Of a stretch of DNA of 37,840 nucleotides, positions 1 through 37,840 are shown one piece after another. A program made the translations under genes and the position numbers. Positions within the stretch are counted from its first letter, which is position 1; each line of letters starts with the position of its first letter. The stretch comes from a virus. Where the stretch lies: UHGV virus genome UHGV-0090851; one strand, written 5' to 3'. Below the pieces are notes generated by a model, which was given only the letters and a program-made list of their open reading frames with translations, was not told the DNA's origin and made no database searches.

Positions 1-49
1 CGCACAGGTTCCCACGTTTTATGGGAACCCGAAATAACGAGGTCGTGTA

Positions 50-1147
50 ATGGCGTACTATAACATAGAGAAACGACTAAAATCCGATGGCACACCACGC
101 TATCGCTGTAATGTGATTATCAAAGAAAAAGGTGTTATCACTTACAGGGAAAGCAAAACATTCCCTAAACATGCTCATGCCAAAACATGGGGCACACAGA
201 AAGTGATGGAATTAGATCTATATGGCATTCCATCATCAAATGCAGTTGACGGACTTACAGTCCGTGACTTACTACACAAATATTTAAATGACCCAAATGC
301 CGGAGGTAAAGCAGGCCGTACTAAAAGATATGTGCTGGAACTGCTTATGGATAGTGACATCTCCGCGATCAAACTATCTGAACTGACAGAAAATGACGTA
401 ATTGAACATTGCAGGCTAAGAAACAACGCTGGCGCAGGTCCAGCAACAGTCAGCCACGATGTTAGTTATCTTGGCAGTGTTCTGGATGCGGCCAAACCTG
501 TATACGGAATTAATTACACATCAAACCCGGCGAAAAGTGCTCGTCCATATCTACTTAAACTTGGTTTGATTGGTAAATCAAACCGTCGTAATCGTAGACC
601 AGCATCTGATGAACTGGACATGCTCATTGAAGGCCTTCAACAACGATCTACTCATAAATGCTCAAAAATTCCGTTCGTTGATATCCTCAAATTTTCTGTG
701 TGGTCCTGTATGCGAATCGGAGAAGTATGCCGGTTACGATGGGAAGATCTCGACCAGGAACAAAAATCTATACTCGTAAGAGACAGGAAAGATCCACGCA
801 AAAAGGAAGGCAACCACATGAAAGTAGCCTTGCTTGGGGAAGCCTGGGATATCGTCCAACGACAGCCCAAAAAATCGGAATTCATTTTTCCATATAACAG
901 CACTTCTATTACTGCGGGATTTCAGAGGGTAAGAAGCAAATTAGGTATTAAGGATCTGCGATACCATGATTTGCGTAGAGAAGGGGCAAGTCGCTTATTT
1001 GAGGCTGGTTTTAGTATTGAGGAAGTAGCCCAGGTTACAGGGCATCGTTCATTAAACGTGCTATGGCAGGTATATACCGAACTGTATCCGAAATCTTTAC
1101 ATAATCGTTTTGAAGAGCTCCAAAGGAGCAGAAATAAGACCCCTTGA
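50..1147 (+). CDS. Tyrosine recombinase / phage integrase
   Basis: 365 aa ORF with ATG at 50. C-terminal catalytic region HDLRREGASRLFEAGFSIEEVAQVTGHRSLNVLWQVYTELY fits the R..H..R..Y tyrosine recombinase signature. Confidence 0.88.
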   Translation: MAYYNIEKRLKSDGTPRYRCNVIIKEKGVITYRESKTFPKHAHAKTWGTQKVMELDLYGIPSSNAVDGLTVRDLLHKYLNDPNAGGKAGRTKRYVLELLMDSDISAIKLSELTENDVIEHCRLRNNAGAGPATVSHDVSYLGSVLDAAKPVYGINYTSNPAKSARPYLLKLGLIGKSNRRNRRPASDELDMLIEGLQQRSTHKCSKIPFVDILKFSVWSCMRIGEVCRLRWEDLDQEQKSILVRDRKDPRKKEGNHMKVALLGEAWDIVQRQPKKSEFIFPYNSTSITAGFQRVRSKLGIKDLRYHDLRREGASRLFEAGFSIEEVAQVTGHRSLNVLWQVYTELYPKSLHNRFEELQRSRNKTP

Positions 1148-1195
1148 CACTGTTTATCCATACAGTTAAAAATAATACTGTATACAAACACAGTA
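1144..1195 (+). promoter_or_regulatory. dinI promoter region with two tandem LexA (SOS) boxes
   Basis: TTGACA at 1144-1149. CTGT-N8-ACAG at 1150-1165 and a near-consensus 20-mer TACTGTATACAAACACAGTA at 1176-1195, 14 nt upstream of the dinI start. Confidence 0.65.
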
Positions 1196-1208
1196 TAGAG
1201 GGACTTTT

Positions 1209-1457
1209 ATGCGTATTGAAATCTGCATAGCCAAAGAAAAAATGACTAAAATGCCAACCGGTGCTGTGGATGCGTTAAAGGAAGAATTAACCCGACGCAT
1301 CAGTAAACGTTATGACGATGTAGAGGTGATCGTAAAAGCCACCAGCAACGATGGCCTTTCTGTTACACGCACCGCAGATAAGGATTCTGCAAAAACTTTT
1401 GTTCAGGAGACTCTGAAAGATACCTGGGAATCTGCTGACGAGTGGTTTGTTCACTAA
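1209..1457 (+). CDS. dinI: DinI-family DNA-damage-inducible protein
   Basis: 82 aa; MRIEICIAK...[33 protein letters not shown] matches the DinI/MsgA family; LexA boxes immediately upstream; ATG at 1209 with SD GAGGGA. Confidence 0.85.
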
Positions 1458-1600
1458 TTAACACGTAAAATCGGTAACGGCTGGAAATCATTCAATAATC
1501 GCACTATCGAAAGTTCGCCAGCCAGCCGCAGCACGTTCTTGCATACGACGTGGCTGCGGCTTCCAACATTAGACAAATAACTCTTTAAATTGCTTTTAAA

Positions 1601-1846
1601 TTATTTCGTTTGAATGCCAGTAACAGGAAATCGTTTATATAGGGTTGATATCCGATCTAACTTCCAGACAATCAACTCATCTCCACTTTTCATCACCGTA
1701 ATTAATTCCTTTAACACAGGGCGATTAGCTGTTCTGCCACTGGCATATTCTTCATAAATTCGCTCACAGCCAGCTGACTCAAGTGCAAGACGTTGCAACT
1801 CTGTATCCTGATGATTTGTTGATACACGAACATACCCGTAAATCAT
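1601..1846 (-). pseudogene. Truncated serine DNA invertase (Pin/Gin/Hin family), N-terminal remnant
   Basis: First ~65 aa (MIYGYVRVSTNHQDTELQRLALESAGCERIYEE...LIVWKLDR) match the invertase catalytic N-terminus including the active-site Ser motif, then the frame degenerates. Too little room before dinI (1457) for a full ~190 aa invertase. Confidence 0.7.
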
Positions 1847-1920
1847 GAGTGCTTCTCCTGTTGTAAAAACAGGAGAAGAGGCGAAATATCACCTGATTCA
1901 GAAAAATATTTCAAAGGTTC

Positions 1921-2415
1921 CTATGCTGGTTTTTCTGGCCACTCTGGCTTTGAGGTATCGACGCGCATCAGTAAGACCCGGTATTTTTTCCATTCTGACA
2001 AAGCGGCGGTTTCGTCTTCTGTCGCTATTCCCGCATCAACCGCATCCTGCCGCCATGCAATTTCAGAATCAGCTTTCAGCCTCAGGCTTGCCTTCATAGC
2101 CTCTGAATCAGCGATTAACTCGCTCTGCGATTTTTGATACTCGACCAGTTTTCCACCGATTAATCGCTGTTTATCTGTATCAATCGTTTCAGCATTAATC
2201 TCCACCACATAGAAGCCAGCAGGGTCAGGAAGGCTGGAAACATCGCGTGTAAACGCTGAAATACGGCCGTCATCGTCGTAGAGGATTTTTAGTGTATCTT
2301 CAGCAAAGTTATTCTGTTGCTCATACCAGTCGCCGTCTGCGTTTCTGGAATAGCTGACAGTGCCATATTTCAGATTATCTGGTGTGTAACGTTCAAATTT
2401 TTTACTGAGTGACAT
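1921..2415 (-). CDS. Tail fibre assembly protein (Tfa-like chaperone)
   Basis: 164 aa, directly downstream of the tail fibre gene with a 14-nt overlap; C-terminal region typical of Tfa proteins; ATG verified at 2413-2415. Confidence 0.75.
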
Positions 2416-3310
2416 TGACCCATGCTCCGTTAATGTAAGCCTGAAGAGTTGCGACTTTTACTTTGTTAAGTACCCACGCACCACCACCTGGCGTCGGGGT
2501 GATATAAATACCCACAACCATTTCACTAGTTGTGAAATTCATCCAGGCATCTGCAGTCGTAACAGTTACTTCTCGGGGCGCAGAAAGGCGCAATGCTGAA
2601 ACCGACTCGCCCGCCAGAGCCATTGTCCCTGCTTTATCTGGGATGATAATTGCCTTACCGTTAATCCCTGTAATGGTCGCCTGGTTGTTCGTGGAATAAA
2701 TACCAACACGGATAATATTATTGCTGTCCGTAACCTCTAATCCGTATCTGCATGAAAGTGCGTCAGATAATGATTGTTTCGTGCTGGCGTCCGTAATGAC
2801 GTAGTTTCCTTTCGGTTGCAATTTATCAATACCGAAAGCGGCTTTAACTCCATCAACAGTCGTTTGACCTGTCCCCCCTTGTGTGACAGGTAGAGCGATA
2901 GCGGCTCCGGTGTCGTTATTCCACATTCCCCAACTGGTGTTCGACACCAGGAGAAATTTTTTCAAATCAGGAGAGAAAATCTTCGTGGATACAGGGTCGG
3001 GTTTAATGGTCTGCAATCCAAGGTTTTCGAGAGCTGTTTTCACCGTGCCATCCGATTTGATATCGCCAAACGGATTCTTGCGGCTTAACAGCAGCGCGCG
3101 AAGTGCGGTAAGTAACTGGTCGTGCCGCCCCTTCTCCAGGCTGGCACCGGATGCCTCCACCACGCTGCAAAGTTCCTCCTGCAACATGTCAAAGTAGTCA
3201 TCATCCAGATCGGTGGCAGGCGTGCCGGTCTGGGGGTTACCACGGGTAAAACCGTTCTTACCCGCGCCGAACTTATCCTTCTGCGCGGTTTTCGTGTCTA
3301 TACGATGCAT
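2402..3310 (-). CDS. Tail fibre protein (short, receptor-binding part)
   Basis: 302 aa, Gly/Thr/Asn-rich C-terminus, placed between the baseplate gp48-like gene and Tfa; ATG verified at 3308-3310. Confidence 0.7.
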
Positions 3311-3313
3311 GGA

Positions 3314-3898
3314 TTACTCCGGATATTTAAAAATTACGTAGGTATGCGACGGGCAGAGTTTGTTAAGCACGCACTCGACAACGGTGTCCCCCCAGATACG
3401 CAGTGCGGAATCACAGGGATCGCCACATGTCATCCAGGTGGTGTTGGTGGCGGCTGGCATGTTGACCTGCCAGTAATACCGCCATTCCGGCGCATTCACC
3501 GCGTCAGTACAGGCCGATGAGCAGGTGAACGTGCTTTTGTCGTATCGCGTGATGGTAGCGTCTGGTCTGCCCAGGGCAGCAAGCTGTGCAAGGTAAAAAT
3601 CCTCATTGATGCCGCCCGCCAGGTTAACCTTCGCATCCAGTCGTTGCTGACGCTGGCGAAGGGTCTGTGTCCCTGCGGGAATACATTCATCCGGCAGGCC
3701 GCACAGACGCTCCCAGCGATTTATCAGTTCGGTGGTGGTGCGCGGATCCAGCTCCCGCATCAGGGCATCCGCACGCTGATGAACACGAGTTAATGACGGT
3801 GCCGCACCGGCAATCGCCGGATCGCTGGCTGACCACGCCGGACCGGGCGGCAGCAGTGCCGACAACAGACGGATGTAATCATCGTTTGTCACGTCCAT
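3314..3898 (-). CDS. Baseplate/tail protein, Mu gp48-like (DUF2313, YmfQ-like)
   Basis: 194 aa; position immediately after baseplate J; sequence reminiscent of the YmfQ/gp48 family. Confidence 0.65.
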
Positions 3899-4947
3899 GA
3901 AATCGTCCCCAGAACCGCCAGTTCATTTTTCGCAATGGAGATATTGTCTGCCGGTACAAGCAACTGATGGCTGTATTCCCCGTTCGCACCGGAAATCGCT
4001 TCACTGATACGCGACACCTTCAGTTCTCCCTGCGGATAACCATCACGCAGCAGGAACGAACGCAACTCAGCAGTGATGGCGGCTCGTATTTCCGGTGTGT
4101 CCGGCGTCACGCGGATATGAAAATCCACCGTATGCGCCACCGGCCTGAACACATACAAATCAGAGCCTGCCACCGGGGCCAGTGGCTCAATGTGTTGTCT
4201 TGCCGCCGTTTCCGTTGATTCTTCCGGAATGGGATTAATCAGGTCACTGCCGGCAATCATCACACCGACAGTCCCCGTTCCCATCCAGTGACGGTATGTC
4301 CATGCGCGGGTAATGCCGGGCACTTCTTTAGCCCAGACGACATAGTCCCCGTCAGCCCCGCCCTGCGGCGTCCAGTAATACCGCTCAATGACGCGGGCGC
4401 GCCACGTTTCCAGATCTTCAGTATCGAATCCGCCAGTCAGGGTATCTGCCACACCGGAAGACGGCAGACCATTCACCGGCGTGACCAGGATTAATGCCGT
4501 ACCGTCGTCAGCGTTACCGACCGCGCCTGCACTTGAGCAGGCGATCGGCACGCGCAGGACACCACCGGAGCTGGTTGCATCGGCAGTTGCCGTGTACTGA
4601 ACCAGGTCATCGCGCTGAATAACACTCCCGGCAGTCACCTTCAGGCCATCGCTGACACCTTCCCAGCGCATATACCCGCTGGCAGCCGTGGCCCCCTTGC
4701 GCGGACACCGTTTCATCGCAGCATGTCGCGCCAGCCAGGACTCATCGCACAGGTCAGGCAGCATGTTCATTGCCAGATAATCGATGTAACCGTAAACCGT
4801 ATGCAGCGCCGCCGCATACACCTTTGCCCGCACGTCTTCATCCATGCGCCGGAGCGTGTCGCTGACGTCCAGCCTGGCGAATAAATCGTTACGGAGCATA
4901 CTGATATTTTCTGCCAGCGTCGGGCGCTGAAATTCACTGTCCGCCAT
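3889..4947 (-). CDS. Baseplate J-like protein
   Basis: 352 aa; baseplate J family features and synteny (gp46-like, J, gp48-like). Confidence 0.8.
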
Positions 4948-5362
4948 GCGTTATCGCACTCCACAGATCATCAAAAGAAATCATTACCGGTCCGTCACGA
5001 CGCCAGAGAGTGATACTGTTACCCAGTTCATTAATCCCGGTGCGGCGGATATCCAGATCAATACGGGACACCACGCCGTCATCAATCATCCATTGCAGGC
5101 ATTCGCGGATATACCCCCTTACCGTCTGCACCAGCTGATTGGTCAGTTTGCTGCGCTGAAGCAGCCACAGCCGGGAGCCGTAACGGTCATTCTGTACCGC
5201 AGGCCAGGTATCCCCCCACCATCCCATCGGGACGTCGGCGTTGTCATCAGGCTCCGCCCGCCGCCAGGTAAACAGGGAAATCACCACGGCGCGGGTCAGC
5301 GGATCCAGCGGTGCGCTGGCGCAGGTGCGTTTACCGTTCACCGTCAGCCACAGTTCCATCAT
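4934..5362 (-). CDS. Baseplate protein (Mu gp46 / GP46 family)
   Basis: 142 aa between the spike and J genes; overlapping start/stop with neighbours. Confidence 0.65.
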   Translation of the reverse strand: MMELWLTVNGKRTCASAPLDPLTRAVVISLFTWRRAEPDDNADVPMGWWGDTWPAVQNDRYGSRLWLLQRSKLTNQLVQTVRGYIRECLQWMIDDGVVSRIDLDIRRTGINELGNSITLWRRDGPVMISFDDLWSAITHGGQ

Positions 5363-5907
5363 GCCTCCATCGCTTTATCCGGTTTGTCGGTGTTACTGCC
5401 CTGACCGTTCTCTCTGTGACGATGCCCGTTATAGGCAAGCCGCATCGCTGACATGGTGGTGCCGCCGGAGTCGCACAGGTCTTTCACCTGTCCTGTCACT
5501 TCCAGGTCCATTTCAAAACGTGCTTTAGGTGAATTGCGAAACGTGATCGTTTTACCTGCACCGTCCACCACGATCCCCTCCCGGGTCAGCGTCACGGACT
5601 GCCCCTGATCGTCATAGACAGCCACCTCACCCGTCTGCAGCCCTTTCAGGCGGTAGCGCCGGTCCGACACCGTAACAACCACCGCATGAGAACGGTCGCC
5701 ATCCGGAAACAACACTACCGCTTCCGCACCGCTGTTTGCCCTTGCGGTAAAACCGTAGGGTTCAAGATGTTCAACCCCGGCTTTGGGTTCACCGGCAATC
5801 AGGGACACATCCACGGTCTGACATTTCGTGGCGGCACTGATGCTTTTCACCACGGCTCGCCCAATCAGGCCGAGGAGTTGTCGCTGCATGGCTTCAATCG
5901 TCCTCAT
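5359..5907 (-). CDS. Baseplate assembly protein V / spike
   Basis: 182 aa; gpV-like beta-rich sequence; synteny between hub and gp46. Confidence 0.7.
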   Translation of the reverse strand: MRTIEAMQRQLLGLIGRAVVKSISAATKCQTVDVSLIAGEPKAGVEHLEPYGFTARANSGAEAVVLFPDGDRSHAVVVTVSDRRYRLKGLQTGEVAVYDDQGQSVTLTREGIVVDGAGKTITFRNSPKARFEMDLEVTGQVKDLCDSGGTTMSAMRLAYNGHRHRENGQGSNTDKPDKAMEA

Positions 5908-6986
5908 CAGAACGGGTCCTCCTGTACTCTGGCTTTTTTCTTTTTCCGCACGCCGGGGGCTTCGGGTTCAGGCAGATAAGCATCAGGTGGGCCGACACGG
6001 ATTTCCGTCAGGGTGCCGTTCTGGTCCTGAGTAAACGTGACTTCCGAGACAAGCAGTTCGGTATTGTCAAAACCACAGACCGGATCGAAGACAATCACCC
6101 GCTGGTTGGGCTGCCACAGCGTACCGTTACCCTGTCGCCAGCCCTGCACCACATAGGTGGTTTCATCCGTCCGCGCCGCCCGTTGTCGGGCTTCAAAGTC
6201 AGCACGCGCAATACAGCCTGCCCCCGTAGCCTGCCCTGTCTGCCTGATATACATCGGACGGTAACGGGCAATAAATGCGTCCTCTGTGCGGGCCCGCAGC
6301 GCGGTGGTGGTGGCCTCACCGAAATCATCGTCGTTTCCGGCACGCTGCCCCGCCACCTGGTAAACAGAAAACCGCTCCCGGATACTCTTCTCCGTATCGC
6401 AGGAAAGGATGTTTTCCCCGAGTACCAGCGCAGTATGTGCCCGCGTTGAGCCAATACCGCCAATCACCAGCCTGCCGTGCGGGTCGTCGTAAGCCAGTGC
6501 CTGCTGCTGACCGAGTATTTTGTTGATCACCTCAATCACCGTTTCGCCGTGATCAGGCTGGACATCAGGAATAACACCCGACGGCGCACTGTTGTTCACC
6601 ACCTCAATGCCGAAAGGCGCAGCAAGCGCCTGCGCAATCTGTACCAGCGATCGTCCGTTAAACTGTGTCGGTTCGGCTGCACAGTCAATCAGGTCAGCGG
6701 TCAGACTGCGTCCGGCAATACCGGTGCTGACCGAACGGGCATCGTAACGAACGGGCGTCGCCTCCACCCAGCCGGTGATCACCAGCTCATCACCAATCAG
6801 CACCTCCACTTTTGAACCGTTTTTAATGCGCGGCTGAAGCGTGGTAATACCCTCATCTCCCGGCCACTGGCGGGTGATCTCCACACTGAAATCCCGCGCC
6901 AGCCGTTCAATACCGGCACCGATGCGCACCGATGTCCAGCCATTCCACTCCCGGCCATTTACCCGTAGCGTGACATTGTCGTTCAT
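5907..6986 (-). CDS. Baseplate hub (phage late control D-like)
   Basis: 359 aa; gpD-like; follows the DNA circulation gene as in Mu-type tails. Confidence 0.7.
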   Translation of the reverse strand: MNDNVTLRVNGREWNGWTSVRIGAGIERLARDFSVEITRQWPGDEGITTLQPRIKNGSKVEVLIGDELVITGWVEATPVRYDARSVSTGIAGRSLTADLIDCAAEPTQFNGRSLVQIAQALAAPFGIEVVNNSAPSGVIPDVQPDHGETVIEVINKILGQQQALAYDDPHGRLVIGGIGSTRAHTALVLGENILSCDTEKSIRERFSVYQVAGQRAGNDDDFGEATTTALRARTEDAFIARYRPMYIRQTGQATGAGCIARADFEARQRAARTDETTYVVQGWRQGNGTLWQPNQRVIVFDPVCGFDNTELLVSEVTFTQDQNGTLTEIRVGPPDAYLPEPEAPGVRKKKKARVQEDPF

Positions 6987-8356
6987 TGCACTGGCACCTT
7001 CAGAGGGATCACCGGCACAAAGCCGGGATGCGTAATGGCATTACGCCGGATAATGTCCGCGTCACGCGCCGCGTTATCAAACCAGGTCGCCGCCAGCACC
7101 AGCGCGGGTAAAACCTCATCCGGTGTGCGCTGAATGATCCGTGCAGACTGTTCAAGGCGCGTGTTGATATCCGCATTCAGATCTGCTTTCACCCGGCGCA
7201 GCGCCAGAAACAGCGCATCACTGGTTGTACGGGACAACTCCTTATCAATTGCCGTATTCAGTGTGTCGCGAATGTCAGTCAGTTCTTCCCACGTCGGCAG
7301 GTCAACCGTGTTTTTCACCGCCGGTGCATTGTTCAGTGCCGGATGCGTGACGGAAGGCCAGCCAGTGCTCTGCGCGGGTGTTGTTGCCTGCCCCACTGCG
7401 GAATTCTGCATCACCGCGGAAGTTGTTGGCGCAGGCAATCGGGTGACGGCATACGCCGCTTCGCTGATTGCGGTCGTACGAAGGGTGCTGGCAACCACGT
7501 TACGCTGCTGCGTCGCCGTGGCGGTGGTTTTACTGTCCGTTTTCCAGACGCCGCGCGGTTGCAGATCGCTGCCGAGGCTGACACCGGAAAGCGTTTTGAT
7601 CATGGTGACCAGGTCGCTGGCGTTACCATAAAGGCGTTTCCCGGTACGCCACATTTTCTGCACCTGCTCAACGAAATTTTTGCCTGACGATGGCGGCGGC
7701 AGAAGTACCGAGATATCCCCCTGCAACAGCCTGGCGGCATCCGATACGGCAGAATCCACCACTTTCATCGCATCAGAAACATACCCCAGCATTATGCTGG
7801 CATTACCGATAACGTCGTTCTGCACGAAATCCGCCACACCATCGATACTGAAACCACTGAAGCTGTCACTGATGCAGTCATCCAGTGCAGAACAGGATGA
7901 CATCAGCGTCTGCGCCGTCGCCGCACCTGAAGTGGGGTAAGAGAGCTCTCCTGCTTCGACAAACTTCAGGTCAAAACGGACAATACGCCCTTCACTCTTC
8001 GATGTGCTGACCCGAACTTCCCCGTCAACACAGACTTTCAGCTCACCGTAAGTCGGATGGACAAGCGTGCCGGGACCGGGTTTATTCAGCGCTTCAATCA
8101 GGCGATCGCGCTGGTCAAAGCAGTCATCTCCCACCACATAAGCTGTGATGGACGGGCGGAAAGTGACTTTTCCCAGATCTTCGGTATAGGGCTTGTCGCG
8201 GTTCGGGTATTCATGTGTTTCCACACGACGACCGGTTCCCGCACTTTCTTCTTCAACCTTAAACGGCACACCTCGAAATGATGCTTCAAGTAGCTTTTCA
8301 CGCCAGCCACTTCGAGAATCAGAGGATAGGTACGAAGAAATATGAGAAAAATCCAT
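6983..8356 (-). CDS. Tail protein with DNA-circulation N-terminal domain (Mu N-like)
   Basis: 457 aa; lies between tape measure and hub; ATG verified at 8354-8356. Confidence 0.75.
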   Translation of the reverse strand: MDFSHISSYLSSDSRSGWREKLLEASFRGVPFKVEEESAGTGRRVETHEYPNRDKPYTEDLGKVTFRPSITAYVVGDDCFDQRDRLIEALNKPGPGTLVHPTYGELKVCVDGEVRVSTSKSEGRIVRFDLKFVEAGELSYPTSGAATAQTLMSSCSALDDCISDSFSGFSIDGVADFVQNDVIGNASIMLGYVSDAMKVVDSAVSDAARLLQGDISVLLPPPSSGKNFVEQVQKMWRTGKRLYGNASDLVTMIKTLSGVSLGSDLQPRGVWKTDSKTTATATQQRNVVASTLRTTAISEAAYAVTRLPAPTTSAVMQNSAVGQATTPAQSTGWPSVTHPALNNAPAVKNTVDLPTWEELTDIRDTLNTAIDKELSRTTSDALFLALRRVKADLNADINTRLEQSARIIQRTPDEVLPALVLAATWFDNAARDADIIRRNAITHPGFVPVIPLKVPVQ

Positions 8357-8371
8357 GGCGTCACCTCAAAT

Positions 8372-8398
8372 AAAAACCGCGTGTAAACGCGGTTTTTT
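8372..8398 (-). terminator. Hairpin with flanking T-run downstream of the moron gene
   Basis: AAAAACCGCGTGTAAACGCGGTTTTTT: 5-bp GC stem CCGCG/CGCGG with A-run and T-run flanks, so it could terminate in either direction. Confidence 0.45.
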
Positions 8399-8412
8399 AT
8401 TAGGTAATAAAA

Positions 8413-8901: not shown

Positions 8902-8965
8902 ATTCTCTCCTACATTCAGCACAAACTTTACCACTCAATAACCCTACTTGATTAAAGTAGTTATA

Positions 8966-13278: not shown

Positions 13279-13286
13279 GAGGATCC

Positions 13287-15055: not shown

Positions 15056-15057
15056 AC

Positions 15058-15258: not shown

Positions 15259-15307
15259 GATTCTTCACCCGTCAGAACAGGGGGCGCGGTTCCACGCCCC
15301 TGAGTGA

Positions 15308-16513: not shown

Positions 16514-16527
16514 CGTATTTCTCCTGA

Positions 16528-31085: not shown

Positions 31086-31778
31086 ATGAACATAGGAAAT
31101 CGAGTCAGACAACTTCGCCAGGCGAAGAACATGAAAATCGCCGATCTCGCTGAAGCAATAGGAGTGGATGCGGCGAATATCTCGCGCCTCGAAACAGGTA
31201 AGCAGAAACAATTCACTGAACAAGCCCTGAGTAATATTGCCAGGAGCTTAGGTGTTGATATTGCTGATCTCTTTACCTCAGACCTCAAAAGTAATACTGT
31301 ATGTAAAAACAGTATTAGTGAGGATGTTGCGCAGGTGAAGGATGTATTCCGTATTGAAATGCTGGATGTCAGTGCCAGTGCGGGAAATGGCCTTATCCAG
31401 GGCGGTGATGTCATTGATGTGATTCATGCCATTGAATACAGAACTGATAATGCTGTATCGATGTTTGGTGGACGACCAGCAAATCACATTAAAGTTATCA
31501 ACGTTCGTGGGGACAGTATGTGTCCAACCATTGAGCCAGGAGATCTCATCTTCGTTGATATCAGTATCAATCAGTTTGATGGGGATGGTATATATGTATT
31601 TGGTTTTGATGATAAAATTTACGTCAAACGACTGCAAATGATACCTGATAAACTGCTGGTAATTTCTGATAATCAGATTTACCGCGAATGGGGAATTACC
31701 AGCGAAAACGAACACCGGTTTATGGTCTTTGGAAAGGTCTTAATCAGTCAGTCACAAACCCTTAAGCGACACAATTAA
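31086..31778 (+). CDS. CI-type phage repressor (HTH plus S24 LexA-like peptidase domain)
   Basis: 230 aa; N-terminal HTH (VRQLRQAKNMKIADLAEAIGVDAANISRLETG) and C-terminal autocleavage domain (VRGDSMCPTIEPGDLIFVD...VKRL). Confidence 0.9.
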   Translation: MNIGNRVRQLRQAKNMKIADLAEAIGVDAANISRLETGKQKQFTEQALSNIARSLGVDIADLFTSDLKSNTVCKNSISEDVAQVKDVFRIEMLDVSASAGNGLIQGGDVIDVIHAIEYRTDNAVSMFGGRPANHIKVINVRGDSMCPTIEPGDLIFVDISINQFDGDGIYVFGFDDKIYVKRLQMIPDKLLVISDNQIYREWGITSENEHRFMVFGKVLISQSQTLKRHN

Positions 31779-31872: not shown

Positions 31873-32343
31873 TTTCATTTTATCTTTCTTTCCAGACCAA
31901 CAAACAAGGTCCTGACAAAATTTGGTTGTAACACGGCGTATGGCACATGCGTCGTTAGCGGTCTGGGGACGTTAAAGGGGACAATCCACTCCTTGCTCGG
32001 GCAAACAAACCAGGTAGCCGGAATGTGCAAGTCAATGATGATGCTGATAAGACGCCTAACCAGCGCGGCGATCCGGTTTGACGCCTGGGAAGAGACCAGG
32101 GTGCAACGATGAGGGCATTTATGGAACCGCGACAAAGTGTGGTGCCGTAACTGGCTAAGTGCTCTCAGCGTTGTGGTAATCCGCGAAATGGCGCGGCGGT
32201 AAGTATGGCGGGGTTACTCTTTCCCCGTTGAGGACACCGGATTGTCAGGTTGACCATACGCCTGAGTGACAACCCCACCACAACAGCCACTGCTTTGGCG
32301 GTGCCAGTTTGTACACTTGCTTCCGGCTGGTACCGCTCTTTTT

Positions 32344-32432
32344 ACAAAACAGAGAAGAGCATCACCGGACGACGGGCTCATAACCCAATCCATCCGGGCG
32401 GCTGCCACCGCAGGTGTTCTTCTCTGTTTTGT
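32344..32432 (+). repeat. Perfect 15-bp inverted repeat with 59-nt spacer in the early-left leader
   Basis: ACAAAACAGAGAAGA (32344-32358) and TCTTCTCTGTTTTGT (32418-32432); sits about 50 nt upstream of the first early-left gene. Confidence 0.4.
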
Positions 32433-32480
32433 GGAGAAACCAACCGACCTTGCAGGGTCGATATGATGAGGAACAGCAAA

Positions 32481-32843
32481 ATGGCTAGCGAACGCAGTAC
32501 TGATGTGCAGGCATTTATCGGGGAGCTGGACGGCGGCGTATTTGAAACCAAAATCGGCGCAGTTCTCAGTGAAGTCGCTTCCGGTGTGATGAACACGAAA
32601 ACCAAAGGGAAGGTCTCACTCAACCTGGAAATCGAACCATTTGATGAGAACCGTGTGAAAATCAAACACAAACTCTCATATATTCGCCCGACTAACCGCG
32701 GGAAAATTTCCGAAGAAGACACCACCGAAACGCCGATGTATGTCAATCGCGGTGGTCGCCTGACTATTCTGCAGGAAGACCAGGGACAATTACTGACTCT
32801 TGCCGGTGAACCTGACGGAAAACTCCGCGCAGCAGGTCATTAA
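32481..32843 (+). CDS. Hypothetical early-left protein
   Basis: About 121 aa from ATG 32481; the longer table ORF from 32250 starts at TTG and its N-terminal region does not look protein-like. Confidence 0.45.
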   Translation: MASERSTDVQAFIGELDGGVFETKIGAVLSEVASGVMNTKTKGKVSLNLEIEPFDENRVKIKHKLSYIRPTNRGKISEEDTTETPMYVNRGGRLTILQEDQGQLLTLAGEPDGKLRAAGH

Positions 32844-32908
32844 TATCGTTTTTAATAAACTGATTATTTATCTCATCACTGAATATTTTTATATAGTGAG
32901 GACTTATT

Positions 32909-33733
32909 ATGTCTCAGAACTTAGACGCAACCGCAATTAATCAAATCCATGCCCTTATTTCTGCTCAGGGTGTTAATGAAATTATCAGTAAGATTGGTGC
33001 CGATGCTGTGGCATTGCCTGAGAATTTCCGCATTCATGATCTGGAAAAATTTAATTTAAATCGCTTCCGTTTCCGTGGTGCGCTTTCCACTGCCAGCATC
33101 GATGACTTTACCCGTTATTCTAAAGATCTTGCAGATGAAGGCACCAGCTGCTTTATCGATGCTGATAATATGCGTGCCGTCAGTGTACTTAACCTGGGTA
33201 CTATTGATGAACCAGGTCACGCAGATAACACCGCCACTCTCAAACTGAAAAAGACAGCACCGTTCTCTGCCCTGTTGTCTGTTAACGGCGAGCGTAACTC
33301 CCAGAAGTCACTGGCAGAATGGATTGAAGACTGGGCCGACTACCTTGTGGGCTTTGATGCCAATGGTGACGCTATTCAGGCAACAAAAGCGGCTGCGGCA
33401 GTCCGTAAAATCACGATTGAAGCAAACCAGACCGCTGATTTTGAAGATAATGACTTCAGCGGCAAACGCTCCCTGATGGAGTCTGTCGAAGCGAAGACAA
33501 AAGACATTATGCCAGTGGCATTTGAATTTAAATGCGTTCCGTTTGAAGGTCTGAAAGAACGTCCGTTTAAATTACGCCTCAGCATTATCACTGGCGATCG
33601 TCCTGTACTGGTTCTGCGCATTATTCAGCTGGAAGCGATGCAGGAAGAAATGGCTAACGAATTTCGTGATCTGCTTGTTGAGAAATTCAAGGACAGCAAA
33701 GTAGAAACCTTTATTGGTACTTTCACCGCCTGA
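32909..33733 (+). CDS. YfdQ-like protein (DUF2303)
   Basis: 274 aa, ATG with SD; resembles the CPS-53/KpLE1 prophage YfdQ family as recalled. Confidence 0.6.
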
Positions 33734-33861
33734 TTTCATTACTGCAAATGCCCCTGCGGGGGCATTTATGGAAACGTAATTAACTCAATAATCACCGGAT
33801 GGTGAGAGCTTCCTTTTAGCAGAATTCAGCGCGGTGCAGCGCATATAAAGTGGAGAACAAA

Positions 33862-34398
33862 ATGTCATTTATTAAAACTTTTTCCGGGAAGCATTTTTAT
33901 TATGACAGGATAAATAAAGACAACATCGATATTAACGATATCGCGGTTTCCCTTTCAAATATCTGTCGCTTTGCCGGTCATCTTTCACACTTCTACAGCG
34001 TCGCCCAACATGCGGTGCTTTGCAGCCGGCTGGTGCCGCAGGAATTTGCTTTTGAAGCGTTAATGCATGATGCAACAGAAGCGTATTGCCAGGACATCCC
34101 CGCGCCACTGAAACGCCTTCTTCCTGACTATAAACGGATGGAAGAAAAAATAGACGCCGTAATCCGTGAGAAATACGGGTTACCCCCGGTTATGAGTACG
34201 CCCGTGAAATATGCCGATCTCATCATGCTGGCAACCGAACGCCGTGATCTCGGGCTTGATGATGGCTCTTTCTGGCCTGTACTGGAAGGCATCCCGGCAA
34301 CAGAGATGTTCAACGTGATTCCACTGGCACCGGGCCATGCCTACGGGATGTTTATGGAACGCTTCAACGAGTTATCGGAATTACGCAAATGCGCATAA
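33862..34398 (+). CDS. yfdR: HD-domain 5'-deoxynucleotidase, YfdR-like
   Basis: Start at ATG 33862 (SD GGAG); H...HD metal-binding motif (AGHLSHFYSVAQHAVLCS...ALMHDATEAY); strong resemblance to E. coli YfdR as recalled. Confidence 0.7.
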   Translation: MSFIKTFSGKHFYYDRINKDNIDINDIAVSLSNICRFAGHLSHFYSVAQHAVLCSRLVPQEFAFEALMHDATEAYCQDIPAPLKRLLPDYKRMEEKIDAVIREKYGLPPVMSTPVKYADLIMLATERRDLGLDDGSFWPVLEGIPATEMFNVIPLAPGHAYGMFMERFNELSELRKCA

Positions 34399-35267
34399 CT
34401 CATGTAGTTAGTTTTTCTGGCGGGAGAACATCTGCATATCTTGTTCACCTGATGGAAGAACAAAGAAAGGCTGGCAATAACGTCTGCTACATCTTTATGG
34501 ATACCGGTTGCGAACATCCGCTGACATACCGCTTTATTCGGGAGGTTGTGAAGTTCTGGGGCATATCGCTAACTGTGTTGCAGGTCGATATAAATCCAGA
34601 GCTTGGGCAGCCAAATGGTTATACGGAATGGGAACCAAAGGATATTCAGACACGAATGCCGGTGCTTAAACCGTTTATGGACATGGTAAAAAAATATGGC
34701 ACGCCATACATCGGCGGCGCGTTCTGCACTGACAGATTAAAACTCACCCCCTTCACAAAATACTGCGATGACCATTTCGGACGAGGGAATTACATCACAT
34801 GGCTGGGTATTCGTGCAGACGAACCTCGTAGGCTGAAACCGAAATCGGGCGTCCGGTATCTTGCCGAGCTATCTGATTTTGATAAGTCGGATGTTATCCG
34901 GTGGTGGCATAAACAACCTTTTGATTTGCAAACCCCGGAGCACCTCGGGAACTGTGTTTTCTGCATCAAAAAGTCCACGCAAAAGCTGGGGCTTGCATGT
35001 AAAGACGAACCTGGTCTGATGCGAGTTTTTAATGAGCTGGTTACAGGTAAACACGTCCGGGATGGTCACCGAAAGACAAATAAAGACGTTATGTACCGTG
35101 GTCATCTGAGCCTTGACGGGATTGCCAGAATGTATGCCGACAGCGACTACAGAAATTTGTATCAGGCGATGGTGCAAGCCAGGCGATTCGATACCGGCTC
35201 GTGTTCAGAGTCATGTGAAATCTGGGGTGATCAATTGGAGTTGAAATTCGAAGAGGTGGTGGCATGA
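34389..35267 (+). CDS. PAPS-reductase-like PP-loop protein
   Basis: 292 aa; N-terminal PP-loop SFSGGRTSAY; C-terminal Cys clusters; overlaps neighbours (translational coupling). Confidence 0.65.
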   Translation: MRITHVVSFSGGRTSAYLVHLMEEQRKAGNNVCYIFMDTGCEHPLTYRFIREVVKFWGISLTVLQVDINPELGQPNGYTEWEPKDIQTRMPVLKPFMDMVKKYGTPYIGGAFCTDRLKLTPFTKYCDDHFGRGNYITWLGIRADEPRRLKPKSGVRYLAELSDFDKSDVIRWWHKQPFDLQTPEHLGNCVFCIKKSTQKLGLACKDEPGLMRVFNELVTGKHVRDGHRKTNKDVMYRGHLSLDGIARMYADSDYRNLYQAMVQARRFDTGSCSESCEIWGDQLELKFEEVVA

Positions 35268-35740
35268 CAACCAAAATTAACTATCAGGCACTGCGTGAGG
35301 CGGCAGAAGCAATAAAAATAGTAGCCACACCACAAAAATTGCTGGCATTTCGTATGAAAGTCACACCGCAGGTTGTGCTGGCGCTGCTGGATGAGCTGGA
35401 AGCAGCAGAGAAGCGAAACGCTGAATTACAAAGCGAGAATGCATACATCCGCAACCGGTACAAAGAACTGGACCTATTAATCGGGAAAAACATTCTGGTC
35501 ATGCAGGCTGCCATTATCGAATGGCAGGCAACTGGCGACGCTAAGAGCGGACTGGCATGGATTTATAACACACTGTTTGGCCCTGGCGAATTACCGGACG
35601 AATCTGAGAAAGATGCTCAGGCCTACTTTAATCGCAAATATGCACCGATTGACGAAAAGCTTATGGCGCTTCACAAGTGGTTTTGGGAACAAAGTGAAGC
35701 CGAGCGCGCCGCCGCCAACATTGGTGTGAAGGGGAAGTGA
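35264..35740 (+). CDS. Ead/Ea22-like protein
   Basis: 158 aa; coiled-coil central region; ATGA overlap with the upstream stop; family assignment from memory. Confidence 0.5.
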   Translation: MTTKINYQALREAAEAIKIVATPQKLLAFRMKVTPQVVLALLDELEAAEKRNAELQSENAYIRNRYKELDLLIGKNILVMQAAIIEWQATGDAKSGLAWIYNTLFGPGELPDESEKDAQAYFNRKYAPIDEKLMALHKWFWEQSEAERAAANIGVKGK

Positions 35741-35741
35741 G

Positions 35742-35933
35742 ATGAACGGACAAATCTCAATTGTTCGACCGGGAGCATGTGACGATTGCGAGATACGAAT
35801 GATTATTCGTCTGGCGAGGGGGAAAACAATAACTGCTCTCATTACTCCTGAAAATCTCGCATTAGCATTAACAGGAAAGTCAGACCTGCCAGTAGAGCTA
35901 AAGCTGCGAAATATTGAGATTAAAGTGAAATAG
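35742..35933 (+). CDS. Small hypothetical protein
   Basis: 63 aa, ATG with SD; tightly packed in the operon. Confidence 0.4.
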   Translation: MNGQISIVRPGACDDCEIRMIIRLARGKTITALITPENLALALTGKSDLPVELKLRNIEIKVK

Positions 35934-35935
35934 TT

Positions 35936-36679
35936 ATGAATACTCTTACCAAAGAATGGTTACAGAACACGATTACCAGCATTGAGTCAGCACGGGATGA
36001 AATACCGTTCGGACTCGATGAAGATCAAAACAACATGCTTACCGCATTAAAAATTGCACTGGCATCACTGGCATCACTGGCAGCAGTATCGGATGAACGA
36101 GCAGCCTATGAATTATTTATGGAGAAGCGTTTCGGGGAATCTGTAGATCGCCGTAGGGCAAAAAATGGCGATAGAGAATACATGGCATGGGATATGGCGC
36201 TTGGCTGGATTATCTGGTGTCACCGCGCCGCCATGCTTCAGGGTAGCCAACCTGTAAGCCAAACTTACAACTTGCCAGAATTAATCGAAGGCATGGAAGT
36301 TTCCATTGATGTAAGCACTTGTGATGCTGATTTAGGTAATCGCTATTTCGGCACCGTCACCGAGGCGTTAGAACTTGATACAGCCAAGAATGGTTACATC
36401 CTCCTGGTTCAGGACGCAGAGCCAAACTTCGATGTAAATGGCAACTCTCCGGTAACTCCGGATAGTTGGATAAGCTGTAGTGATCAAATGCCTGAAAAGG
36501 GCCAGAACGTGCTTATTTCGGTGAATTTCGATAGCTCTCTGGTTGAACCGCTAATATGCTCCGCACGCTATACCGGAAGCACCTTTCGGCGCGGAGATGC
36601 AACGATTAAGCCGGGTAATGGTATTGAGCAAGCAACTCACTGGATGCCGCTACCGGAACCGCCGCAGGAGGTGAAGTGA
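35936..36679 (+). CDS. DUF551-containing protein with Ea22-like N-terminus
   Basis: 247 aa; C-terminal segment (WISCSDQMPEKGQNVLI...THWMPLPEPP) resembles DUF551. Confidence 0.55.
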   Translation: MNTLTKEWLQNTITSIESARDEIPFGLDEDQNNMLTALKIALASLASLAAVSDERAAYELFMEKRFGESVDRRRAKNGDREYMAWDMALGWIIWCHRAAMLQGSQPVSQTYNLPELIEGMEVSIDVSTCDADLGNRYFGTVTEALELDTAKNGYILLVQDAEPNFDVNGNSPVTPDSWISCSDQMPEKGQNVLISVNFDSSLVEPLICSARYTGSTFRRGDATIKPGNGIEQATHWMPLPEPPQEVK

Positions 36680-37251
36680 TGAACAACTTAATGATCGACC
36701 TTGAGACGATGGGGAAAAATAAGGATGCACCGATCGTTTCCATTGGCGCGGTGTTCTTCACTCCAGAAACCGGAGACATCGGACAAGAATTCTATACGGT
36801 TGTTAGCCTGGAAAGTGCTATGGGGCAAGGAGCTACACCTGACGGCGATACCATCCTGTGGTGGTTGAAACAAAGCCCTGAAGCACGAGCTGCAATCTGT
36901 ATTGATGATACTTTGTCGATCAGCGATGCTCTCTCAGAACTAAATCATTTCATTAACCGGCACGCAGACAATACGAAATATTTAAAAGTCTGGGGTAACG
37001 GAGCCACCTTCGACAACGTAATTTTACGTGGAGCTTATGAGCGAGCAGGACAAATCTGCCCGTGGGCATACTGGAATGACCACGATGTACGCACGATCGT
37101 TACGCTTGGGCGTTCCATCGGATTCGACCCCAAAATGGACATGCCTTTCGATGGCGAACGGCACAACGCCCTGGCTGATGCCCGTCATCAGGCAAAATAT
37201 GTTTCCGCTATCTGGCAGAAATTAATTCCTGCCACCAGCACAGAATTATGA
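36679..37251 (+). CDS. 3'-5' exonuclease, DnaQ-like DEDDh family
   Basis: Start at ATG 36679 (SD GGAGG); Exo motifs IDLET (motif I) and HNALADA (motif III). Confidence 0.7.
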   Translation: MNNLMIDLETMGKNKDAPIVSIGAVFFTPETGDIGQEFYTVVSLESAMGQGATPDGDTILWWLKQSPEARAAICIDDTLSISDALSELNHFINRHADNTKYLKVWGNGATFDNVILRGAYERAGQICPWAYWNDHDVRTIVTLGRSIGFDPKMDMPFDGERHNALADARHQAKYVSAIWQKLIPATSTEL

Positions 37252-37287
37252 TTTTCCCGGGTGCAGCCGGTTTTGATGGAGAAAATT

Positions 37288-37569
37288 ATGAACACCTTGT
37301 TTTTACTGATGGCTGAATTCAATACCCCTAACATTGAACTCTCAGCAGTTAGCCAAAAGTACTTTGGCATGAGTCCAGCCACGGCAGAAGCAAAAGCAAA
37401 CGCTTGTAAGTTGCCCGTTCCAACATATCGCATCGGCACATCACAAAAAGCAAAACGTTGCATCAATATTCAGGATCTTGCGGAATACATAGACAAAAGA
37501 CGAGAAGAAGGACGTATCGAGTGGGAACAGGTCAGAACAAGCAAACAGAAGGGCAAAGAACATCACTAA
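37288..37569 (+). CDS. PrtN-family / excisionase-like small DNA-binding protein
   Basis: About 93 aa from ATG 37288 (SD GGAG); MNTLFLLMAEF...KLPVPTYRIG...INIQDLAEYID resembles PrtN-type regulators; last gene of the early-left operon. Confidence 0.5.
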   Translation: MNTLFLLMAEFNTPNIELSAVSQKYFGMSPATAEAKANACKLPVPTYRIGTSQKAKRCINIQDLAEYIDKRREEGRIEWEQVRTSKQKGKEHH

Positions 37570-37577
37570 ATAAAAAA

Positions 37578-37597
37578 CCCGCCTAAAGGCGGGTTTT
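37578..37597. terminator. Bidirectional intrinsic terminator
   Basis: CCCGCC-TAAA-GGCGGG flanked by an A-run upstream and TTTT downstream; sits between convergent genes. Confidence 0.6.
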
Positions 37598-37616
37598 CAA
37601 AAAGCACCAGCTATGA

Positions 37617-37790
37617 TCATGCTGCTTTGCGACGACGAAGCTTACCCTGCTGCTCTTTACCAGAGACAGTAGCGTGAGTGAACGCATTAGGAGCAGCCTT
37701 CATCAGAACTTCAACAGCAGCACCCATACCTGCGAATGCTTTCATTGTGTCGAACTTAACCTGTGGCTTGGTTGCTTTTTGATCTTCCAT
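37617..37790 (-). CDS. Small hypothetical protein, convergent with the early-left operon
   Basis: 57 aa ORF absent from the >=60 aa track: ATG at 37788-37790 with strong SD AGGAG 7 nt upstream; Lys/Arg-rich C-terminus; could be host or phage. Confidence 0.4.
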   Translation of the reverse strand: MEDQKATKPQVKFDTMKAFAGMGAAVEVLMKAAPNAFTHATVSGKEQQGKLRRRKAA

Positions 37791-37840
37791 AGAAAACTCC
37801 TGAAGTTATACCGAAACAATTCCTGTTGTTTACTCATCAT

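Follow-up and report, generated by a model that had tools for sequence, protein, structure and literature searches.

A dusA-specific integration module with repeated motifs on both attP arms of an SfV/SfIV-like Escherichia coli prophage

Results

Genes at the two ends of the window

The window, meaning the whole 37,840 nt stretch of virus genome UHGV-0090851, opens with a tyrosine integrase gene (int) and closes with a PrtN-family gene followed by reverse-strand cargo (Table 1). A sequence-only reading had placed int 49 nt from the left edge and the end of the PrtN-like gene about 270 nt from the right edge, and both spacings stand, with exactly 49 nt before the int ATG and 271 nt beyond the stop codon of the PrtN-family ORF. 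The catalytic domain of Int (PF00589) covers residues 189-346 (E 1.6e-20). The AlphaFold model comprises a β-β-β-helix domain (residues 2-58), a helical domain (71-171) and the catalytic domain (186-362), and matches the structures of Tn1549 Int, lambda Int and XerA; with full-length lambda Int the alignment extends over 368 columns (E 2e-9), as compared with 297 columns for its N-truncated form. The N-terminal domain (a three-stranded sheet plus helix, pLDDT about 90, leading into a linker) is confidently modelled as an extra one preceding the core-binding domain and has no match in Pfam.

At the right-hand end the PrtN-family ORF was listed as 37261..37569 from a GTG start, while the ATG at 37288 is the more likely start, being preceded by GGAG 6 nt upstream and giving the 93-aa protein annotated in relatives. 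The PF11112 domain spans residues 3-74 of this protein (E 3e-23, 82 bits; cut-off 24 bits), which is 100% identical in SKA5 and ETEC4077 and 96.6-98.9% identical in VG888-46E9 and S115. The genes leading into it encode yfdP/Q/R-like, PAPS-reductase-like, Ead/Ea22, DUF551 and 3'-5' exonuclease products, and we infer that they form one operon with it. Beyond it the 57-aa ORF is annotated WP_000390072.1 in relatives and has no match in Pfam, NCBIfam or PADLOC. The final 11 nt of the window are identical to positions 7530-7540 of locus L002 and match the next cargo gene, so the prophage goes on past the right edge; in 24 of the 25 best genome hits at this end the match covers two hypothetical proteins. 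Those 11 nt are the sole direct sign, within the window, of rightward continuation.

Table 1. Features of the window that bear on integration and excision, with neighbouring genes.
Feature	Position	Strand	Basis or remark
P' arm, innermost 49 nt; also the intergenic stretch from the phage-borne dusA 5' end (outside the window) to int	1..49	.	
Direct repeat copy 2, AGGTTCCCAC, candidate arm-type Int site P'2	6..15	+	12 bp from copy 1
Inverted copy, TGGGAACC, candidate arm-type site P'3	22..29	-	pairs with 7-14
int, dusA-specific (DAI-family) tyrosine integrase, 365 aa	50..1147	+	PF00589
DinI-like gene 3' of int; context only, outside the recombination module	1209..1457	+	PF06183, E 1e-19
cI-like repressor (HTH and S24 peptidase), upstream of the rightward early genes	31086..31778	+	PF00717, PF01381
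Rightward early genes, tightly packed, leading into rdfN	32250..37251	+	ORF list, Pfam, relatives' annotation
rdfN homologue (PrtN-domain recombination directionality factor), 93 aa	37288..37569	+	PF11112
GC-rich hairpin between convergent rdfN and 57-aa ORF	37573..37598	.	scored as intrinsic terminator, - strand
57-aa ORF, last of the reverse-strand cargo block between rdfN and attP	37617..37790	-	
3' end, including stop codon, of the next cargo gene (128-139 aa)	37830..37840	-	window's final 11 nt

An apparently different integration cassette on an Sf phage backbone

The closest relatives share different parts of the window. In SKA5 (OR670062.1) the integrase and the 49 nt upstream of int are both 100% identical, and the structural genes of SKA5, VG888-46E9, ETEC4077 and S115 are 97-98% identical to those of the window. 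The window is nevertheless a mosaic, and no more than 57% of its first 25 kb is covered by SKA5. The window's invertase gene has an internal deletion, and the reverse-strand cargo block before attP matches SKA5, ETEC4077 and S115 while the right-end block of VG888-46E9 differs. Among the complete E. coli genomes in the collection none carries the whole window, the best covering 95% of it at 97.7% identity. Between positions 3014 and 20882 the window matches phages SfIV, SfII, SfI and SfV (44-68% of a 25-kb query aligned, 97-98% identity), with a head, tail and packaging module in common. These matches begin at 3014 and leave int uncovered, and no Sf phage occurs among 60 spread-sampled rows of the 327 integrase matches. 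By these comparisons the integration module appears to be a different cassette from that of the Sf phages, on a shared backbone. The window is an ordinary E. coli SfV/SfIV-like temperate myovirus prophage lodged in the 5' end of dusA through a known dusA-specific module. As a separate observation, one copy is plasmid-borne at a pseudo-attB, so members of this phage family can ride a plasmid with conjugative-plasmid leading-region genes.

Probable placement of the attachment sites in dusA

The ends of the window share no direct repeat, as the sequence-only reading had reported: the longest word that the two terminal 300-nt segments have in common is 7 nt, and shuffled ends usually give 7-9. Its further statement that the attachment sites could not be identified is correct for the window taken alone and fails once near-identical relatives are used. 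E. coli VG888-46E9 matches the left 1.65 kb at 100% identity; in that strain the start codon of dusA (the tRNA-dihydrouridine synthase A gene) is found 40 nt to the left of window position 1, and the opposite end of the prophage bears a displaced dusA 5' pseudogene of 105 bp. The lysogens ETEC4077 and S115 match the right 1.5 kb at 98-99% identity, and in both the sequence past the window end holds a 128-aa ORF, a Panacea-domain ORF and a displaced dusA 5' fragment, the small cargo block with the Panacea-domain gene thus preceding the right-hand core. In these lysogens int adjoins attL and the PrtN-family gene lies near attR. Their attL and attR have in common the core TCGAGCAT and a further stretch of about 105 bp that is about 80% identical, and comparison with an empty site, which the sequence-only reading had proposed, gave an exact result: the K-12 attB is the left half of attL, TCGAGCAT and the right half of attR, that is, the outer halves joined. 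The crossover core corresponds to dusA nt 97-104, in agreement with attB TCCAGTCGAGCATGGGAGC and its 7-base core as published for a dusA-integrating Stx phage (PMC6328086).

From relatives 99-100% identical at the window ends together with the empty K-12 site, the left core would lie 143-136 nt to the left of position 1 and the right-hand core about 1.23 kb beyond position 37840, both placed by the relatives rather than by the window's own flanks. Neither core is in the window because its left edge falls 135 nt inside the junction and its right edge about 1.23 kb short; the att sites went unseen since the window stops just short of them on either side, rather than through any unusual biology. 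The window is about 96% of the whole prophage, trimmed within the element at both ends.

The hybrid dusA of the lysogen is full length, its nt 1-96 matching native dusA at 78 of 96 positions, and encodes a DusA of 346 aa in which 23 of the 32 N-terminal residues are as in the native protein. A dusA' ORF is found in attP of both SKA5 and YeP2. In the genome that is 100% identical over window positions 1-1650, int is divergent from dusA with the start codons 88 nt apart, and at 33 of about 46 usable loci, from many genera, relatives of the integrase are likewise divergent at about 88 nt from the dusA start; about 13 lie elsewhere. Among the matches listed, relatives 25-36% identical occur in phages of Pseudomonas, Acinetobacter, Ralstonia and Burkholderia. 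The catalytic domain and, in the relatives' flanks, the divergent dusA neighbour, imperfect att repeats and replacement dusA 5' end are the features of the DAI integrase family, whose att region in dusA has been described (Farrugia et al., 2015; PMC4482086). DAI elements, and the Stx phage phi1720a-02/phi-stx2dact in Citrobacter rodentium (PMC6328086), also enter about 100 bp into dusA with int beside attL, and share with the present element imperfect att repeats centred on ...TCCAGTCGAGCAT... and an in-frame replacement of the dusA 5' end. The present phage differs in its backbone, which is SfV-like, with a contractile tail, rather than lambdoid.

Organisation of attP and a proposed route of excision

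In SKA5 the PrtN-family gene, three small reverse-strand genes, an intact attP, the dusA 5' fragment and int follow one another in one continuous stretch, with 1.5 kb between rdfN and the core. In this lineage attP thus does not directly follow rdfN, and of the gap of about 1.5 kb only the first 271 nt are within the window. In phages YeP2 and Kp4882-1, RdfN homologues of 55% and 51% identity are encoded immediately before attP. The predicted order, with attP between the excisionase-like gene and int and with int on its downstream side, is borne out by the order in SKA5, by the lysogens and by the report that int and rdfN flank attP on opposite sides (PMC8409611). The refuting condition named in the sequence-only reading, att direct repeats at internal positions, does not hold, since no att copy is present within the window.

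PrtN-domain proteins of dusA-specific elements have been identified by experiment as the excision factor RdfN, which in IMEVchUSA3 is necessary for excision and sufficient together with Int (Durand et al., 2021; PMC8409611). The product of 37288..37569, with its PF11112 domain and its place across attP from int, resembles RdfN of the IMEVchUSA3 pair IntdusA/RdfN and is by analogy an RdfN homologue and candidate excision factor. IMEVchUSA3 differs in being a mobilisable island in which the plasmid activator AcaCD switches on rdfN, while rdfN here is the last gene of a presumed phage early operon downstream of a cI-like repressor; the authors of that study leave open how rdfN is activated in dusA elements of the prophage type (PMC8409611).

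In the proposed mechanism, the circular phage would carry attP between int and the early operon with its reverse-strand cargo block, and Int would exchange strands within TCGAGCA(T) at dusA nt 97-104. In the integrated state int would be the first gene at attL, reading inward, with rdfN near attR. The phage-carried dusA codons 1-32 would replace the host's displaced 5' end, and dusA would stay intact because the phage supplies its own copy of these codons. Excision probably proceeds, as homology and gene order suggest, through RdfN together with Int, RdfN being made when inactivation of the cI-like repressor lets the early operon be transcribed. The phage-borne dusA 5' end presumably has its own promoter, by analogy with IMEVchUSA3; a scan for sigma-70-like promoters found none for int and none for the phage-borne dusA start.

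Repeated GGTTCCC motifs on both arms of attP

The 49 nt before int, which are 100% identical to positions 6001-6049 of locus L001 and to attP of SKA5, contain the inverted repeat GGTTCCC-N9-GGGAACC. The sequence-only reading had recognised this repeat at 8-30; its correct position is 7-29, with 8-bp arms GGTTCCCA (7-14) and TGGGAACC (22-29). It is the sole match in the window with one mismatch allowed, and 0 of 100 dinucleotide-preserving shuffles matched. The repeat belongs to a five-copy set over both attP arms rather than being a lone feature. Three GGTTCCC copies lie in the P' arm beside int, the first cut by the window edge so that position 1 is its final base, and two lie across the core, giving positions of -62/-51 and +136/+148/+165 relative to the core; the pair on the other arm spans 62-41 bp from it. 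The reconstructed 445-bp attP holds four exact copies and one with a single mismatch, as against six exact copies on both strands of the remaining 37.8 kb of the window.

The same layout (a direct pair 11-12 bp apart, in most cases an inverted copy and, on the opposite arm, a second pair at about 60 bp from the core) is present in phages YeP2, Kp4882-1, C5a and AS1 and at about 30 chromosomal loci, with motifs that vary between relatives (GCACCCC, GTACACC, GGACACC, GTCACCC, GTGCTCC). The commonest 7-mer family is more frequent than in shuffles in three lineages (p ~0.017, 2e-4 and <2e-4). Motif class follows the Int N-terminus, identity being 0.86 within and 0.65 between classes for residues 1-40 and 0.65 and 0.51 for residues 41-80, a link that is confounded by phylogeny, class B being mostly Xenorhabdus. 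Residues 81-180 (0.64 vs 0.61) and 181-365 (0.76 vs 0.74) are without such a link. Copies on both arms at conserved distances from the core are the pattern of Int arm sites, and we infer that the GGTTCCC copies are putative arm-type sites for the small N-terminal domain of Int.

The copies might instead bind RdfN, or serve as an operator for another regulator acting on the divergent promoters of int and dusA'. Those in the P' arm lie in the 88 bp that separate the two divergent start codons, and the isolated N-domain model gave nothing significant against the PDB, the arm-binding domain of lambda Int included (best E 0.07). RdfN could covary with the repeats too, the two being known together in three lineages only. 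The presence of copies on both arms at conserved core distances speaks against these roles, as does the finding of repeats in C5a and AS1, where no RdfN homologue was found within the stretches fetched; and motif class tracks the integrase N-terminus specifically. The sites of lambda Xis are confined to one attP arm. We consider these roles unlikely.

Much less probable still is a role of the inverted repeat as an RNA hairpin in the leader of int or of dusA' (a terminator, stability or translation element). It can fold on either strand, into a stem of 8 bp on the + strand (-17.4 kcal/mol for nt 1-60) and of 11 bp on the - strand (-18.8 kcal/mol, z -2.2), and its arms change together between lineages, which would preserve pairing as well. 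However, z is only -1.4 on the + strand, the stem lacks a following T-run on both strands and the terminator scan finds no terminator there; the motif recurs as non-pairing direct copies nearby and about 200 bp away on the other arm, and in several lineages the direct pair is retained without an exact inverted copy of the 7-mer.

That int belongs to a neighbouring element such as a tandem dusA island, or that the window is complete with internal att sites, is scarcely credible: tandem dusA-specific elements are on record (PMC8409611) and no genome in the collection is identical to the mosaic window, but TCGAGCAT is absent from the entire window, nothing dusA-like is encoded there, similarity to attP is confined to nt 1-49, a related lysogen has only two att-region copies, one at each end, SKA5 unites int, attP and rdfN in one phage genome, and the window has no second integrase, just the internally deleted invertase gene.

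Discussion

The element falls in a well documented class, that of the dusA-specific integrase with RdfN, and to that extent is already known. Taken as a whole, the account of a dusA lysogen with its att cores outside the window, probably excised by RdfN and Int and bearing GGTTCCC copies as putative arm-type sites, is very probably correct. It shares with lambda a three-domain tyrosine integrase, the probable need for a small directionality factor and a complex attP with repeated non-core motifs on both arms, the last being a trait of heterobivalent (lambda-type) integrases. Unlike in lambda, int is transcribed away from attP, the directionality factor gene lies across attP and belongs to the PrtN rather than the Xis fold family, and the core and the P' sites are about 136-171 bp apart, owing to the dusA coding segment in between.

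For prophage calls at dusA these results mean extending the element by about 150 nt on the int side and, on the other side, as far as the displaced dusA 5' fragment. Only the set of conserved, co-varying att-arm repeats may go beyond what has been published: no description of these GGTTCCC repeats was found, and att-arm repeats are absent from the accounts in PMC4482086 and PMC6328086. They offer a hypothesis for how dusA integrases assemble on attP and how their specificity diverged. Tentatively, an undescribed N-terminal domain of dusA-specific integrases may read five arm-type sites with a specificity that has diversified into several motif classes; the 88 bp separating int from the phage-borne dusA start are taken up by the three P' copies, so Int binding there could affect transcription of both. 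If true, Int occupancy of the P' copies would couple autoregulation of the integrase to expression of a host tRNA-modification gene.

Attachment sites

Both attachment sites of the prophage fall beyond the window, and their absence from it is an effect of where the window was cut. The integrase gene (int) and the PrtN-family gene (rdfN) lie near the left and right edges, where the sequence-only reading had placed them, with 49 nt ahead of the former and 271 nt after the latter. The ORF list starts rdfN at GTG 37261, versus an ATG at 37288 with GGAG upstream; the latter start agrees with the annotation in relatives, a 93-aa protein (PF11112, E 3e-23). The flanks were deduced at each end from the relative that matches it best. 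On the left, VG888-46E9 is 100% identical across window 1-1650, position 6001 of its locus corresponding to window position 1; its dusA is encoded on the opposite strand, and the start codon of that gene is 88 nt from the int ATG and 40 nt beyond the left edge. At the far end of that prophage is a 105-bp pseudogene ("tRNA-dihydrouridine synthase, missing C-terminus") beside the DUF2713/yjbM-zur side. On the right, the last 1.5 kb of the window match ETEC4077 (99.3%) and S115 (98.4%), in both of which the window end falls 11 nt inside a 128-aa reverse-strand ORF, followed by a 190-aa Panacea-domain ORF (PF13274, E 2e-18), ~250 nt of non-coding DNA and a displaced dusA 5' fragment. This 11-nt tail is the only sign within the window that the prophage continues rightward.

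The empty site in K-12 MG1655 bears out this reconstruction: joining the host half of attL, the core TCGAGCAT and the host half of attR reproduces attB exactly, and the core is nt 97-104 of dusA. The core would lie 143-136 nt left of window position 1 and, on the right, after about 1,232 nt of phage DNA beyond 37840, the figure being the same in ETEC4077 and in Escherichia phage SKA5. The left flank would run from the phage-borne dusA start codon through TCGAGCAT to host dusA, and the right flank from the Panacea-domain gene through AGGTTCCCAATAGGCTCCCAC, TCGAGCAT and the native dusA 5' end to the yjbM/DUF2713 side. Comparison with these relatives shows insertion of the phage at nt 97-104 of dusA, with int at attL and rdfN near attR, and dusA rebuilt with a phage-supplied 5' end.

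Two other arrangements were weighed. A tandem element was rejected because a related lysogen has just two copies of the att region. Att sites inside the window were rejected as well: searches for TCGAGCAT, for similarity to attB or attP and for DusA-like coding returned chance-level matches only. That no att repeat was visible from the sequence holds, because the window is trimmed short of the repeats; the core and dusA-like sequence are both absent, and the longest direct word common to the two ends is 7 nt, as in shuffled ends.

The presumed position of attP, between the excisionase-like gene and int with int downstream, is found uninterrupted in SKA5 (OR670062.1), whose integrase is identical to that of the window. 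Its order is a 3'-5' exonuclease, the PrtN-family gene, three reverse-strand ORFs (57 aa, 139 aa and Panacea-domain), attP, a dusA 5' fragment and int. In Yersinia phage YeP2 (integrase 68% identical) and Klebsiella phage Kp4882-1 (52%) the PrtN-family gene lies immediately upstream of attP, without cargo. The reverse-strand cargo block found between rdfN and attP varies. A Panacea-domain gene (SocA-like antitoxin, PF13274) always comes first, and after it stands an unrelated small gene, which in one version encodes 128-139 aa and has no family and in another encodes 182 aa. The two look like a toxin-antitoxin or defence pair; the cargo genes past the right edge had no PADLOC defence-system match, and the 57-aa ORF had none in Pfam, NCBIfam or PADLOC.

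Features of the prophage and of related loci (window coordinates unless a locus is named)
Feature	Position	Strand	Remarks
int	50-1147	+	365 aa; PF00589 at residues 189-346 (Pfam, E 1.6e-20)
Invertase gene	1601-1846	-	Tail-fibre DNA invertase; Resolvase N-terminal domain, PF00239
cI-like repressor	31086-31778		S24 peptidase domain; upstream of early operon
Putative early operon	about 32250-37569		Rightward, packed; from gene order
PAPS-reductase-domain gene	34389-35267	+	PF01507, weak N-terminal match; within early operon
rdfN	37261 or 37288 to 37569		PrtN family
Hairpin	37573-37598		Between rdfN and convergent cargo genes
57-aa ORF	37617-37790	-	MEDQKATKPQVKFDTMKAF…RRRKAA; WP_000390072.1 in relatives
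Cargo block, right-end relative (L002)	7530-8518	reverse	
Cargo block, VG888-46E9 (L001)	43332-44375	reverse	
Cargo block, SKA5 (L005)	1566-2554	reverse	
Plasmid-borne copy, NZ_CP126947.1 (L063)	4842-5050		
Plasmid-borne copy, NZ_CP126947.1 (L064)	about 2790-2880		

The recombination module

The recombination module of the window is an already known one, because published dusA systems, the hybrid dusA and the loci of relatives all match it. The dusA-associated integrases were defined from elements in more than 200 genomes, inserted at the dusA 5' end, with semi-conserved 21-bp att repeats, a substitute dusA 5' end supplied by the element and, in 64% of elements, a prtN homologue (Farrugia et al., 2015; PMC4482086). 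An Stx phage integrates in dusA 100 bp into the gene, with a 7-base core, attB TCCAGTCGAGCATGGGAGC and int adjoining attL (Balasubramanian et al., 2019; PMC6328086); compared with the E. coli site for the window, GTCCAGTCGAGCATTGGTGC, this is the same site. The PrtN-domain protein RdfN was identified as a directionality factor, an int-only mini-element being excised only when rdfN was supplied (Durand et al., 2021; PMC8409611); on RdfN, the literature search found only this paper, the other hits being unrelated. In the lysogen the hybrid dusA is full length, the replaced part being identical to the native one at 78/96 nt and 23/32 residues. Of about 46 usable loci with a relative of the window integrase, 33 have it divergent from dusA and about 88 nt from its start; among the genera are Kosakonia, Phytobacter, Izhakiella, Mixta, Rosenbergiella, Morganella, Proteus, Xenorhabdus, Serratia, Plesiomonas, Shewanella, Idiomarina, Vibrio and Aeromonas. 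The element is a typical representative of the described class; what the sequence-only reading observed is confirmed and its interpretation supported.

In about 13 relatives (59-79% identical), the 2.5 kb upstream lack dusA (loci L029, L031-L040, L046, L053 and L054; Xenorhabdus, Serratia, Erwinia and Pseudomonas lundensis). They keep paired direct repeats upstream of int, most with a dusA-like start (…CGTGCAT), and may be either insertions elsewhere or internal members of tandem arrays. Multiple copies per genome are frequent in Xenorhabdus.

By homology to the tested systems, Int alone would integrate the phage and Int with RdfN would excise it. Judging by gene order, rdfN would close the early operon downstream of the cI-like repressor gene and would therefore be made upon SOS induction, while int, which lies apart from that operon in the prophage, would need its own promoter. 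A simple sigma-70 scan found no promoter for int and none for the phage-borne dusA start.

Phage backbone and a plasmid-borne copy

Window 3014-20882 is 97-98% identical to parts of Shigella phages SfIV, SfII, SfI and SfV, which have an HK97-type head, a contractile tail and a Mu-like baseplate, and 3014-25000 is 98% identical to E. coli phage vB_EcoM-720R4. The integrase end is DNA unlike the Sf-type part; it is a 100% identical prophage end in hundreds of E. coli chromosomes, and at least 80% of window 1-1500 is present in 723 genomes. Since even the best match in the E. coli complete-genome set covers just 95% of it (97.7% identity), the window is another mosaic of this SfV/SfIV-like group. 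Relative to the 187-aa gene of VG888-46E9, the invertase gene has an in-frame internal deletion of about 318 bp, joining window 1650 directly to position 7967 of that locus and leaving an 81-aa product (…KLDRI/STLYKRF…); because of the deletion, the fibre-switching invertase is probably inactive. The PAPS-reductase-domain gene, present in the window and S115 and absent from VG888-46E9 and ETEC4077, is one among several mosaic differences of the early region.

The same prophage occurs in plasmid pEND_Eco 18005 (NZ_CP126947.1, 204,838 bp; 99.9% identical over window 1-1500), inside a leading-region ParB/RepB/Spo0J-family gene with ssb, psiA and hok close by. The junctions, CTGTCCGGTGCCGCAT/AGGAGC and CATCCTATCGAGCA/CGGGAC, point to a pseudo-attB, CTGTCCGG-TGCCGCA-CGGGAC, which set against the dusA attB, CCGTCCAG-TCGAGCA-TTGGTGC, fits a 7-bp overlap. 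This copy is a secondary-site insertion, and it puts the phage on a plasmid with conjugative-plasmid leading-region genes.

Repeats in the arms of attP

The inverted repeat GGTTCCC-N9-GGGAACC reported upstream of int is present, its position being one base off (7-29, not 8-30); its arms extend to 8 bp, and it occurs once in the window with one mismatch allowed and in 0 of 100 shuffles. In attP rebuilt from the two phage halves (445 bp), GGTTCCC occurs four times exactly and once with one mismatch, in the P arm on the rdfN side (AGGTTCCCaatAGGCTCCCAC, -62 to -41 from the core) and in the P' arm on the int side (AGGTTCCCgcacAGGTTCCCACgttttatGGGAACC, +136 to +171, ending 20 nt ahead of the int ATG). 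The first P' copy is cut by the window edge, and the inverted repeat consists of copies two and three; the remaining 37.8 kb hold six exact copies, both strands counted. Relatives share the layout with a different motif, and about 30 chromosomal loci fall into the classes GGYYCCC, GCACCCC, GTACACC and GGACACC. In three independent lineages, the commonest 7-mer family has more copies than in shuffles (p about 0.017, 2e-4 and below 2e-4), and E. coli lysogens keep the P-arm pair although the flanking DNA differs.

Repeated motifs in the arms of attP
Phage	P arm	P' arm
Window / SKA5	AGGTTCCC, AGGCTCCC	AGGTTCCC x2 direct, GGGAACC inverted
YeP2	CAGCACCCCaatAGCACCCC	CAGCACCCCataCAGCACCCC-N8-GGGGTGCTG
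Kp4882-1	AAGGACCCCaatAGAACCCC	CAGCACCCCataCAGCACCCC
C5a	inverted pair GTCCCCC/GGGGAC	GTCACCC x2 direct
AS1	GGTGCTCC x2	two direct and two inverted copies

A terminator or RNA hairpin was rejected as an account of the inverted repeat, since the stem lacks a T-run after it and has a modest z-score, and since the direct copies elsewhere do not fit. The most probable reading of the GGTTCCC repeats is as arm-type Int sites. The founding papers on dusA-specific systems do not mention such arm repeats, and a literature search including full text returned nothing specific on arm-type sites of dusA integrases.

Among the regions of Int, only the N-terminus varies with motif class, in a comparison that ignores phylogeny. 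When integrases were grouped by shared versus differing motif class irrespective of kinship, identity was 0.86 versus 0.65 over residues 1-40, 0.65 versus 0.51 over 41-80, 0.64 versus 0.61 over 81-180 and 0.76 versus 0.74 over 181-365. AlphaFold models predict, with confidence, an N-terminal three-stranded sheet and helix (residues 2-58), then a linker, a core-binding domain (71-171) and the catalytic domain, and the integrase model aligns with lambda Int over 368 columns at full length versus 297 for lambda Int without its N-domain. The N-terminal domain had no Pfam or NCBIfam match, a weak Int_N hit at residues 72-165 being the core-binding domain; its isolated model had no significant fold match in the PDB, and a PDB sequence search with the integrase returned only XerA and a Xer-like protein, across the catalytic domain. 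A speculative further role for Int bound at the P' copies would be control of int and of the phage-borne dusA start. The repeat architecture of attP is a modest, testable lead.
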